A stretch of DNA of 64,000 nt from assembly GCF_003334315.1 (NCBI RefSeq), contig NZ_QOWR01000020.1; one strand, given 5' to 3'. The notes under the pieces were generated by a model. The model saw only the letters and a list, made by a program, of their open reading frames with translations. It had not been told where the DNA came from and made no database searches. The translations under genes were made by a program, and so were the position numbers. Source of the DNA: Escherichia coli (lineage in GTDB: Bacteria > Pseudomonadota > Gammaproteobacteria > Enterobacterales > Enterobacteriaceae). Below are positions 61,225 to 63,108 of this stretch, piece after piece. Position 1 is the first letter of the stretch. Every line of letters begins with the position of its first letter.

Positions 61225-63108
61225 ATGATTAAAAAAGCTTCGCTGCTGACGGCGTGTTCCGTCACGGCATTTTCCGCTTGGGCACAGGATACCAGCCCGG
61301 ATACTCTCGTCGTTACTGCTAACCGTTTTCAGCAGCCAGTAAATACTGTCCTTGCACCTACTGATATTGTTACCCGTGAGGATATTCAACGCTGGCAGTC
61401 GAAAGACCTCAACGATGTTATGAGTCATCTCCCCGGTGTAAATATCTCTCAAACTGGTGGAATGGGGACGAGTTCTTCTCTTTATGTTCGTGGCACTGAA
61501 TCGCGCCATGTTTTAGTGTTGATTGACGGAGTGCCGATGGCTCGTGCCGGTATCGACAATGCAATTGATATTAGCCAGTTCCCGGTATCACTTGTACAGC
61601 GTGTTGAATATATTCGTGGGCCGCGTTCTGCCGTTTATGGTTCTGGTGCCATCGGAGGTGTGGTGAACATTATTACAATGAGTAATGATGAGAAAGCTCA
61701 GATCAACGCAGGAATGGGTACAAATGGTTATCAAGCCTATGATGGGGTAATAAATAAACGTTTTGGCGATACGATGGTAACAGCAGCAGGTGCTTACCAG
61801 ACGACCAAAGGTTTTAACATTCAGCCTGGCTCACCATACAGTGGTGATAGCGATCGCGATGGATATCGCAACAAACTTTTCTGGGGGGGGCTGCAGCATA
61901 AGTTTAACGATAACTTCTCGGGGTTCTTCCGTGGTTACAGCTACACAGCTAATAATGATTACGACCAGGGCTCGATGTATGGTTCTGCTACTGGCAACGA
62001 AGAAGCTCAGAATTACAACCAGTCCTGGGATACTGGCCTACGCTATAACTCCGGCATCTATTCGTCTCAGTTAATTGCTAACTATCAACGACTCAAGAAT
62101 TATAACTACACAAATAATCTTGGTCGTTATGCGGGAGATGCCACCCTGGATGACATGGAACAGCGTTATATTCAGTGGGGTAATAGCATTGAGGTAGGGC
62201 ATGGTGCAATTAGCGGCGGGATCGATTGGAAACAGGAAAAACTGACGTCCAGCAGCATTACAAAATCAGATGATTACGAACGCGATACCACCGGGTTATA
62301 CCTGACTGGACAGCAACAGATTTCCAATGTGACTTTGGAAGCTTCTGGCCGAGAAGATCATGATGAACAGTTTGGCTGGCATGGTACCTGGCAGACAGCT
62401 GCTGGCTGGGAGTTTATTGATGGCTACCAGGCAACACTTTCTTACGGTACCAGTTTTCTTTCGCCTTCTCTTGGACAGCAATACGGGGCTGCTCGCTTTG
62501 CTTCAATTTATGGTCCTGGTATTGCAGCCAACCCAAATTTGAAGCCAGAAGAATCTAAACAGTGGGAGATTGGAATTGAGGGGGTAACTGGGACTCTGGA
62601 TTGGCGGCTCTCAGGATATCGTTATGAAATTCAGAACCTGATTGATTATAAAAACATAAATAATGTCAACCAGTACATTAATGTGAAATCAGCCACGATT
62701 AAAGGGCTGGAATGGACGGGAAATATTACAACCGGTCCTGTTGAACATCGCTTGACGTTACAATATGTTGACCCGCGCGATGATGAAACAGATAAAGTGC
62801 TGTACCGTCGGGCAAAACAGCAGGTTAAGTACGAGTTGACTGGACAAGCTTATGGTTTCGAATGGGACGTTTCTTACCAATATATAGGTCAACGATACGA
62901 CAACGCTTATGACGAGACCTCTGGCTCATCACATACAGTTAAATTAGGCGGTGTGAGCTTGTGGGATCTTGCGGTTGCATATCCGGTCACCTCTCATCTG
63001 ACAGTTCGTGGTAAAATAGCCAACCTGTTCGACAAAGATTATGAGACAGTCTATGGCTACCAAACTGCAGGACGGGAATACACCTTGTCTGGCAGCTACA
63101 CCTTCTGA
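61225..63108 (+). CDS. btuB: TonB-dependent vitamin B12 / colicin E / phage BF23 outer-membrane receptor BtuB, divergent mosaic allele (627 aa)
   Basis: Start trimmed to [35 protein letters not shown] (signal peptide and TonB box); C-terminus ...[16 protein letters not shown] with terminal Phe. The centre is AT-rich and differs substantially from the K-12 protein I recall. Confidence 0.92.
   Translation: [627 protein letters not shown]

Follow-up and report, generated by a model that had tools for sequence, protein, structure and literature searches.

BtuB is the TonB-dependent transporter of cobalamin and at the same time the receptor for colicins E and A, phage BF23 and T5-like phages. Several other surface genes of E. 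coli and Salmonella, namely fliC and allelic classes of ompC, ompA and fhuA, are known as mosaics with conserved ends and an exchanged centre. Here, we describe the btuB gene in a stretch of 64,000 nucleotides from Escherichia coli (NCBI RefSeq assembly GCF_003334315.1, contig NZ_QOWR01000020.1), which is called the window throughout. Alignments confirmed that this gene is a mosaic of E. coli-specific ends around a central segment that belongs to a deeply different BtuB lineage. Very probably it encodes a working vitamin B12 receptor of a rare class, designated type II here, and its central cassette recombines among E. coli strains between the conserved ends.

Structural, colicin and phage work on BtuB has been performed nearly always with the K-12 protein. 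Among the outer-membrane proteins, BtuB served most often as receptor in a screen of 255 phages (bioRxiv 10.64898/2026.04.02.716166), and therefore the receptor type could plausibly be a hidden factor when phage host range is predicted. The btuB genes of three horse isolates described by Golomidova et al. are of the K-12 form only (PMC4728585). In the full-text literature searched, which is an incomplete library, no description of divergent natural btuB classes was found, and the matches to "btuB" combined with "balancing selection" concerned beta-tubulin. The split into type I (the K-12-like form) and type II is apparently undescribed; the type II sequence itself is already present in RefSeq under the ordinary BtuB name.

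A mosaic gene with sharp junctions

The junctions were mapped in a MAFFT alignment of the window with K-12 MG1655. Not a single mismatch is found in the 808 nt from 60522 to 61329; the first one occurs at 61330, and from there to 62946 mismatches are dense (about 45%). Past 62946 they are restricted to 62979 and 62997, i.e. two in the first 160 nt, until they reappear from 63334 onward. The first 35 and the last 53 residues of the protein are the same as in K-12, and its total length is 627 instead of 614 amino acids. A reading of this DNA from the sequence alone, prepared before the present analysis, had placed the divergent segment at 61330-62945 between roughly 35 initial and 55 final K-12-like codons, had counted 13 additional residues and had proposed that identity along the gene is not uniform. 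The interval proved correct to within one base, and the other three statements hold as well. At third codon positions the centre is only 37% identical to K-12 (overall values are given in Table 1), and it represents the sole large divergence from K-12 in the window.

The nearest relatives differ according to the part of the gene: the ends are closest to K-12 (99-100%), the centre to a clade of Citrobacter and Kluyvera sequences. The 5' module shares only 77-89% identity with type II genes of other genera. The 3' module is 87-93% identical even to other genera, in contrast with 75-80% in the centre. Both junctions can be narrowed by polymorphisms among the type II carriers. Ordinary E. coli single-nucleotide polymorphisms (SNPs) are found at 61260, 61266, 61269 and 61311 and place the left junction within 61312-61330, and carrier-specific E. 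coli SNPs at 62967, 62979, 62995, 62997 and 63000 place the right one within 62946-62967. These two intervals are common to every carrier compared.

Exact calculation gives 45.6% GC for the centre and 41.4% GC at its third codon positions (GC3), compared with 50.1% and 51.0% for the K-12 centre, 51.4% and 50.0% GC for the two ends of the gene and a mean of 52.4% for the whole window. Among all 1617-nt windows in the 64 kb only 0.6% are as low in GC as the btuB centre, and the lowest 200-nt window has 39.5%. The earlier description of an AT-rich centre with 27-50% GC, based on hand counts over 60 nt, was right in that the centre lies below its flanks, but the drop is modest, "AT-rich" is an overstatement and the wide range is the noise of such short counts. 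The only other 1.6-kb windows with a comparably low GC content (45-47%) are located at about 8950-10300 and at 29750-29900.

An intact cobalamin receptor

The protein surpasses the cut-offs of both NCBIfam equivalog models for BtuB, with 1042.7 bits for NF007926 (cut-off 836) and 664.7 bits for TIGR01779 (cut-off 599.7). It matches the solved BtuB structures 1NQE and 3RGM over the full length (E of about 1e-209), and all solved BtuB chains matched are of the K-12 type. The representative of its protein cluster, which is 99.8% identical, is listed with the Pfam domains PF07715 and PF00593, and RefSeq WP_000591385.1 from strain CP53 is 100% identical to the window protein. The TonB box DTLVVTA (residues 26-32) is that of K-12 and is invariant or nearly so in 46 homologues. 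The cobalamin riboswitch of the leader has the same sequence as in K-12, and its score (Table 1) lies far above the RF00174 gathering score of 31.5; the CP53 annotation also names a riboswitch there.

For the calcium ligands in loops L2 and L3 we take the 1NQG/1NQH work to have assigned K-12 residues D179, Q191, D193, D195, D230 and D241. In the window protein D193, D195 and D230 are conserved together with Y229, and D241 is replaced by E. Mature K-12 D179 and Q191 correspond to N198 and D208 here. Across the 46 homologues this swap follows the type: type I sequences have D...Q where those of type II have N...D. The column counts are 21/25 and 19/27, and the swap may represent a compensating change in the calcium-binding loop.

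Compared with its nearest relative, from C. portucalensis, the ratio of nonsynonymous (dN) to synonymous (dS) divergence of the gene is about 0.045 (dN 0.072, dS 1.6); it amounts to about 0.05 among type II members and to about 0.1 among the E. coli copies. Type II btuB is under purifying selection. In all type II loci fetched btuB is situated at the expected position, with flanking genes listed for the Salmonella loci. Judged indirectly from this position and from the purifying selection, cobalamin uptake under the control of TonB and of the riboswitch is likely to be retained.

Distribution of the divergence over the protein

BtuB consists of an N-terminal plug and a 22-strand barrel, as Pfam, the PDB match and an AlphaFold2 model agree. 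The loops were assigned from this model, whose mean predicted local distance difference test score (pLDDT) of 69 and predicted template modelling score (pTM) of 0.70 are adequate for topology only; DSSP returned 24 strand segments, of which two bulged pairs were merged to give the 22 barrel strands. Within the cassette the plug retains 67% identity to K-12, strands 1-19 about 48% and the extracellular loops L1-L10 about 40%. All 19 of the 19 indel residues are located in predicted extracellular loops, namely L2, L3, L7, L8 and L10, the largest being an insertion of 11 residues in the predicted L7. The length difference between 618- and 627-residue type II proteins is found at the tips of L3, L8 and L10; these three and L5 are the most variable loops.

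In this model the surface is strongly changed, yet the divergence spans the whole barrel as would be expected of an old lineage. The sequence-only reading had regarded the exposed loops as plausible targets of diversifying selection. Mapping onto the model indeed puts every indel in a predicted extracellular loop, but substitutions are spread over strands and plug as well, and with the identities just mentioned and a dN/dS of about 0.05 within type II that proposal is not sustained. Loop-focused positive selection as the main signal was rejected, as strands and plug are also strongly diverged.

Two receptor types in several genera

A matrix of 16 sequences shows 67-97% identity within a type and 48-53% between types, regardless of the species. 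In a neighbour-joining tree the centre of the window gene nests in the Citrobacter/Kluyvera clade. Its amino acid identity is 87-88% to the proteins of Citrobacter (sp. Marseille-Q6884, portucalensis and sp. MGH106), 82-85% to those of Kluyvera species, 84% to Klebsiella spallanzanii and likewise to Phytobacter, and 83-85% to the 618- or 626-residue forms of S. enterica subspecies and serovars. At the DNA level these type II relatives reach 75-80% in the centre with 45-55% at third positions, and the best match outside E. coli has 80% and 55%, respectively. The other type is represented in Salmonella with 86% amino acid identity to the K-12 centre, in C. freundii, C. braakii and C. europaeus with 85%, in Enterobacter with 75-77%, in Pseudescherichia and Scandinavium with 76-77% and in Cronobacter with 73%.

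Both types can occupy the same locus within a species. In S. enterica the type I locus of serovar Cerro (L057, btuB at 3301-5145) and the type II locus of a Derby-like strain (L058, btuB at 3301-5157) are 99-100% identical in the flanks and only about 55% in the centre, and the junctions fall on nt 114 and 1726 of the gene. Among proteins that bear species names of the C. freundii complex, C. braakii included, both types are found as well, at the protein level only. On this comparative evidence type I and type II are two old clades that both extend over many genera and both segregate within S. enterica as well as within E. coli.

Between E. coli and Salmonella the centre of type I btuB shows a dN of 0.083 and a dS of 2.3, the centre of type II a dN of 0.097 with saturated dS, and the neighbouring genes trmA and murI a dN of 0.034-0.053 and a dS of 1.1-1.6. 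As dS calculated by the NG86 method is saturated or undefined between the types and for the E. coli-Salmonella type II pair, only lower bounds and dN are used for these comparisons. Within each type the divergence between both species is at least that of the flanking genes, and hence there is no sign of recent exchange between them. In contrast, the type II centres of S. enterica Derby and Citrobacter braakii share 96.9% amino acid identity and are far closer than any E. coli-Salmonella pair, which indicates that the cassette has passed between genera of this clade in recent times.

A btuB-like gene that is 55-59% identical to type II is found in Yokenella regensburgei and in Enterobacter sp. 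ENT03 (positions 3001-4600 of both fetched loci). It has a different N-terminus, is present in Yokenella in addition to the ordinary btuB and may encode a paralogous TonB-dependent receptor.

Frequency of the btuB classes in E. coli

The census is based on searches with the central segment in 5,426 complete E. coli genomes. The type II allele is found in 284 of them (5.2%), always at 99.4% identity or more and as one chromosomal copy each; the enteropathogenic strain E2348/69 is among the carriers. An earlier megablast with the whole gene had listed 373 genomes at a coverage of at least 80% (284 at 99% or more and 89 at 95-99%); we use 284 since two stricter searches gave this number and the extra 89 were not reproduced. 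In plasmid and phage collections the type II cassette is absent, and the "plasmid" matches were chromosomal btuB at 77% identity or less. Two matches of K-12-type btuB are situated on records labelled plasmid.

The K-12 type dominates with 4,962 genomes (91.4%) and has an internal identity of 95.2-100%; a diversity of up to 4.8% marks it as the old resident form. A third group comprises 162 genomes (3.0%) with about 75% nucleotide identity to K-12 and subclasses at 91.5%, 94.9%, 98% and 100%; many members of the 94.9% class originate from poultry. Its example, E. coli 23CRST031 (NZ_AP045800, positions 2329-4173 of the fetched locus), encodes 614 residues with a GC3 of 38%, its centre is 81% (amino acids) and 75% (nucleotides) identical to K-12, and its boundaries are essentially those of type II, 61330 and about 62940 in window positions. 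The class counts sum up to 5,408 of the 5,426 genomes, as would be expected if each genome carries a single type. Protein clusters contain further K-12-like E. coli subclasses that are 79-88% identical.

Two individual genes deserve mention. In E. coli EC416 (NZ_AP027404, 312263-314912) a K-12-type btuB is interrupted by ISApl1 of the IS30 family, which is a receptor loss by insertion. E. coli HS-01 (NZ_CP172817, positions 4001-5825 of the fetched locus) has a hybrid btuB that is annotated as frameshifted in RefSeq: its first 449 nt, encoding the plug, are identical to the type II allele and the remainder is a K-12-like type I barrel different from that of K-12 itself. The switch lies at about window position 61650-61675, within an island of conserved protein sequence.

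Movement of the cassette between E. coli lineages

The carriers compared from trmA to murI include the window strain, CP53, E2348/69, JNE112863, 88-3493 and SCPM-O-B-8794. The window strain and CP53 have K-12-like flanks, and SCPM-O-B-8794 is a divergent strain. Relative to the window strain, E2348/69 shows 30 differences in the left flank (1574 nt), 4 in the centre (1617 nt) and 20 in the right flank (964 nt); for SCPM-O-B-8794 the corresponding numbers are 80, 31 and 68. Expressed as percentages, the flanks of the carriers differ by 1-2% (5-7% in SCPM-O-B-8794) and the centres by 0.25-0.3% (1.9% in SCPM-O-B-8794). Between the window strain and E2348/69 the centre has a dS of 0.008, compared with 0.12 for trmA and 0.07 for murI; for scale, trmA dS from the window is 0.025 to K-12, 0.12 to E2348/69 and 1.5-1.6 to Salmonella. 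Counted as differences, divergence in the centre is lower than in the flanks by a factor of 4-8, and measured as dS by a factor of 8-14. The cassette is surrounded by at least five flank haplotypes, including a K-12-like one and that of E2348/69.

Near-identical cassettes with the same junctions in flanks that differ by 1-2% indicate that the cassette spreads among E. coli lineages through homologous recombination. The immediate source of the cassette in this strain was almost certainly another E. coli, as judged from the presence of the same cassette in 284 genomes with different flanks. In the right flank 10 mismatches to K-12 occur in 964 nt (about 1% through murI) as opposed to none in 808 nt on the left, and this suggests that the tract transferred from E. 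coli to E. coli extends rightward. The pattern further suggests that the transferred tract was short and that its left end lies within the initial 105 nt of btuB or immediately ahead of them.

Origin of the cassette and alternative explanations

We suggest that a short tract from another E. coli most likely brought the cassette into a K-12-like strain. The cassette (codons 36-574) comprises most of the plug, 19 of the 22 barrel strands and all surface loops but the last. The left end contains riboswitch, signal peptide and TonB box; regulation of btuB reportedly needs sequence within the start of the coding region, as described by Kadner and colleagues. The right end contains the last strands, which terminate in the C-terminal Phe, together with the first 56 nt of murI. 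We infer that the conserved ends act as natural anchors for homologous recombination, and crossovers would fall in or outside of them. As the two types are too different to recombine in the centre, the sharp junctions mark the places where similarity resumes and not necessarily the original crossovers. Ultimately, the cassette would derive from a type II lineage with relatives in Citrobacter and Kluyvera; either import from an unsampled donor or a long-standing residence within Escherichia may account for its presence. Recent spread is favoured by the low diversity within the class and by the unassimilated GC3 of 41%, long residence by the species-level divergence from all relatives and by the parallel split in other species. 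The changed surface would alter recognition by some BtuB-dependent phages and colicins, and selection by these agents, which is plausible as the force behind the types, would keep several of them circulating.

The strongest competitor holds that both types predate the split of Escherichia, Salmonella and Citrobacter and persist as a long-term balanced polymorphism, in which the ends were homogenised in each species and no foreign import took place. It would account for the presence of both types at the same locus with species-specific ends in E. coli and S. enterica, and, at the protein level, of both types under names of the C. freundii complex. Furthermore, alleles group by type and not by species, the divergence of E. 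coli and Salmonella within each type equals or exceeds that of the neighbouring genes, the named members of the cluster formed by proteins of at least 90% identity are all E. coli, and no donor appeared in the searches of protein clusters and species genomes. A deep coalescence is, however, missing: over the whole gene type II differs by 0.6% at most in the 284 genomes, and its diversity is 8-14 times below that of the flanks between phylogroup A-like and E2348/69 backgrounds, whereas the K-12 type tracks the diversity of the species. Moreover, GC3 has not shifted towards E. coli values, the Derby-type/C. braakii pair demonstrates recent intergeneric exchange and the type II subclades are discordant with the species tree. 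We therefore consider such an old polymorphism unlikely, although it carries some real weight. Rapid diversification of an ordinary E. coli allele in place, driven by phages and colicins acting on exposed loops, would fit the role of BtuB as known receptor of E colicins, BF23 and T5-like phages, its leading position in the phage screen and the restriction of all indels to predicted extracellular loops. Third positions are at chance-level identity with saturated dS, strands and loops are about equally diverged with the plug included, the boundary is abrupt, and the centre shares 83-88% of its residues with BtuB from other genera as compared with 51% with K-12. Saturation together with clustering among other genera excludes divergence of the K-12 allele in place, and we give this idea next to no credence. 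Just as improbable is the assumption that no real functional allele exists and that the gene arose as a chimera during assembly, is a pseudogene in decay or represents a second paralogue. Its only support is the frameshifted annotation of the hybrid gene in the related genome HS-01. In contrast, an intact reading frame of 1884 nt occurs at the same locus, one copy each, in 283 complete genomes, purifying selection is strong with a low dN/dS both against relatives and among E. coli copies, equivalog cut-offs are passed with riboswitch and TonB box intact, and the class counts agree with one type per genome.

Several points weigh against our interpretation of a rare type II receptor whose cassette recombines among E. 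coli. The low diversity within the class could also fit a rare allele under balancing selection. The GC3 of 41% is below that of every sampled type II relative (48-67%) as well as that of E. coli, and neither origin accounts for it. The donor was not found among 5.8 billion protein clusters, about 100,000 species genomes (one each), plasmids and phages, and in those searches nothing outside E. coli exceeded 88% amino acid or 80% nucleotide identity to the centre. Replacement by a segment from a more distant donor, as the sequence-only reading had put it, is upheld for the mosaic and for the deeply different lineage of the centre, but the distant donor itself is not demonstrated. The model behind the loop assignment is only of moderate confidence. 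Finally, one study lists E2348/69 among eight E. coli strains, of which only two others resisted supernatants with S. sonnei colicins (PMC10924462). E2348/69 was thus probably susceptible, and a type II receptor may still admit at least some E colicins.

Significance

About 1 in 20 complete E. coli genomes carries a receptor that is only about 51% identical to K-12 over plug and barrel, and a further 3% or so carry other deep btuB classes. Besides phage host range, the receptor type may plausibly bear on the design of phage cocktails and of antimicrobials based on colicins. As the split recurs in Salmonella, and probably in the C. freundii complex, it makes the maintenance of receptor polymorphism a tractable question. 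The finding is of moderate weight on account of how often the allele occurs, of a reference pathogen being among the carriers and of the polymorphism that other enterobacteria show in parallel. A more far-reaching idea is that two ancient, non-recombining receptor types of about 50% identity are kept at one locus in several species by negative frequency-dependent selection from phages and colicins; this is tentative and in our opinion rather doubtful. If it were true, type II carriers including E2348/69 would escape a sizeable part of the phages and colicins studied with K-12 BtuB while keeping B12 uptake, and btuB would contain an exchangeable cassette bounded by functional modules at both ends.

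The locus and its neighbourhood

The gene order of K-12 is kept around btuB, with fabR, yijD, trmA (on the minus strand), the leader, btuB and murI (Table 1). According to the K-12 and CP53 annotation, murI overlaps the last 56 nt of btuB. The 64 kb are colinear with positions 4102452-4166375 of K-12 MG1655 at 99.0-99.4% identity except for the btuB centre. Upstream of btuB, a stretch of about 11 kb differs from K-12 at 0-1 positions per kb, a number that rises to 5 in the last kb. Regions with 10-44 differences per kb (1-14000, 27000-28000, 37000-39000 and 45000-49000) are located between long stretches without any difference, and such patches are the usual mark of short recombination tracts in a K-12-like genome. 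The only other break of colinearity is a short palindromic stretch at 13222-13297, in the intergenic region of glpX and glpK, that resembles repetitive extragenic palindromic elements and does not align to K-12.

Table 1. Features of the btuB locus in window positions
Feature	Position	Strand	Basis or remark
btuB coding sequence, intact, type II allele	61225..63108	+	Open reading frame and translation, MIKK start
Cobalamin riboswitch aptamer, btuB leader	60970..61159	+	Rfam RF00174, 87 bits, full model
5' conserved module: signal peptide and TonB box, codons 1-35, E. coli-specific	61225..61329	+	100% nucleotide identity to K-12
Divergent type II cassette, codons 36-574: remaining plug, barrel strands 1-19 and their loops	61330..62946	+	57% nucleotide and 51% amino acid identity to K-12
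3' conserved module: C-terminal part of strand 20, strands 21-22, loop L11	62947..63108	+	99% identical to K-12
murI (glutamate racemase), overlaps the end of btuB	63053..63910	+	CP53 and K-12 annotation
trmA, upstream neighbour, divergence baseline	59756..60856	-	Open reading frame

Comparison with known systems

With the structurally known BtuB of K-12 (1NQE, 1NQH, 2GSK and 1UJW) the window receptor shares the trmA-btuB-murI locus, the riboswitch, signal peptide, TonB box and the last 53 residues, the fold with plug and 22-strand barrel and the membership in the same NCBIfam equivalog models. It differs in residues 36-574 with only 51% amino acid identity, in its 13 additional residues, in the L7 insertion of 11 residues and smaller indels in L2, L3, L8 and L10, and in the replacement of D179 and Q191 by N and D.

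Closer relatives are the type II proteins of 618-629 residues from the C. freundii complex, Kluyvera, Klebsiella spallanzanii and many S. enterica, which belong to the same clade, occupy the same locus and share 83-88% of the amino acids in the centre. The length of 627 residues is common to Kluyvera, Citrobacter sp. MGH106, K. spallanzanii and the window protein, whereas the 618-residue forms are devoid of residues at the tips of L3, L8 and L10. At the DNA level the centres of the other genera are only 75-80% identical and have a GC3 of 48-67% in contrast with 41% here, and the E. coli-specific ends are a property of the gene described in this work.

Compared with the mosaics of fliC, ompC, ompA and fhuA, as far as these are generally known, btuB has in common the species-level ends serving as anchors, the deep central divergence that extends across species and the occurrence of the same central allele in unrelated chromosomal backgrounds. 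In contrast with those genes, nearly the whole transporter including strands and plug is exchanged in btuB and not an exposed domain alone, and the boundaries coincide with the 5' regulatory region on one side and with the overlapping murI gene on the other.

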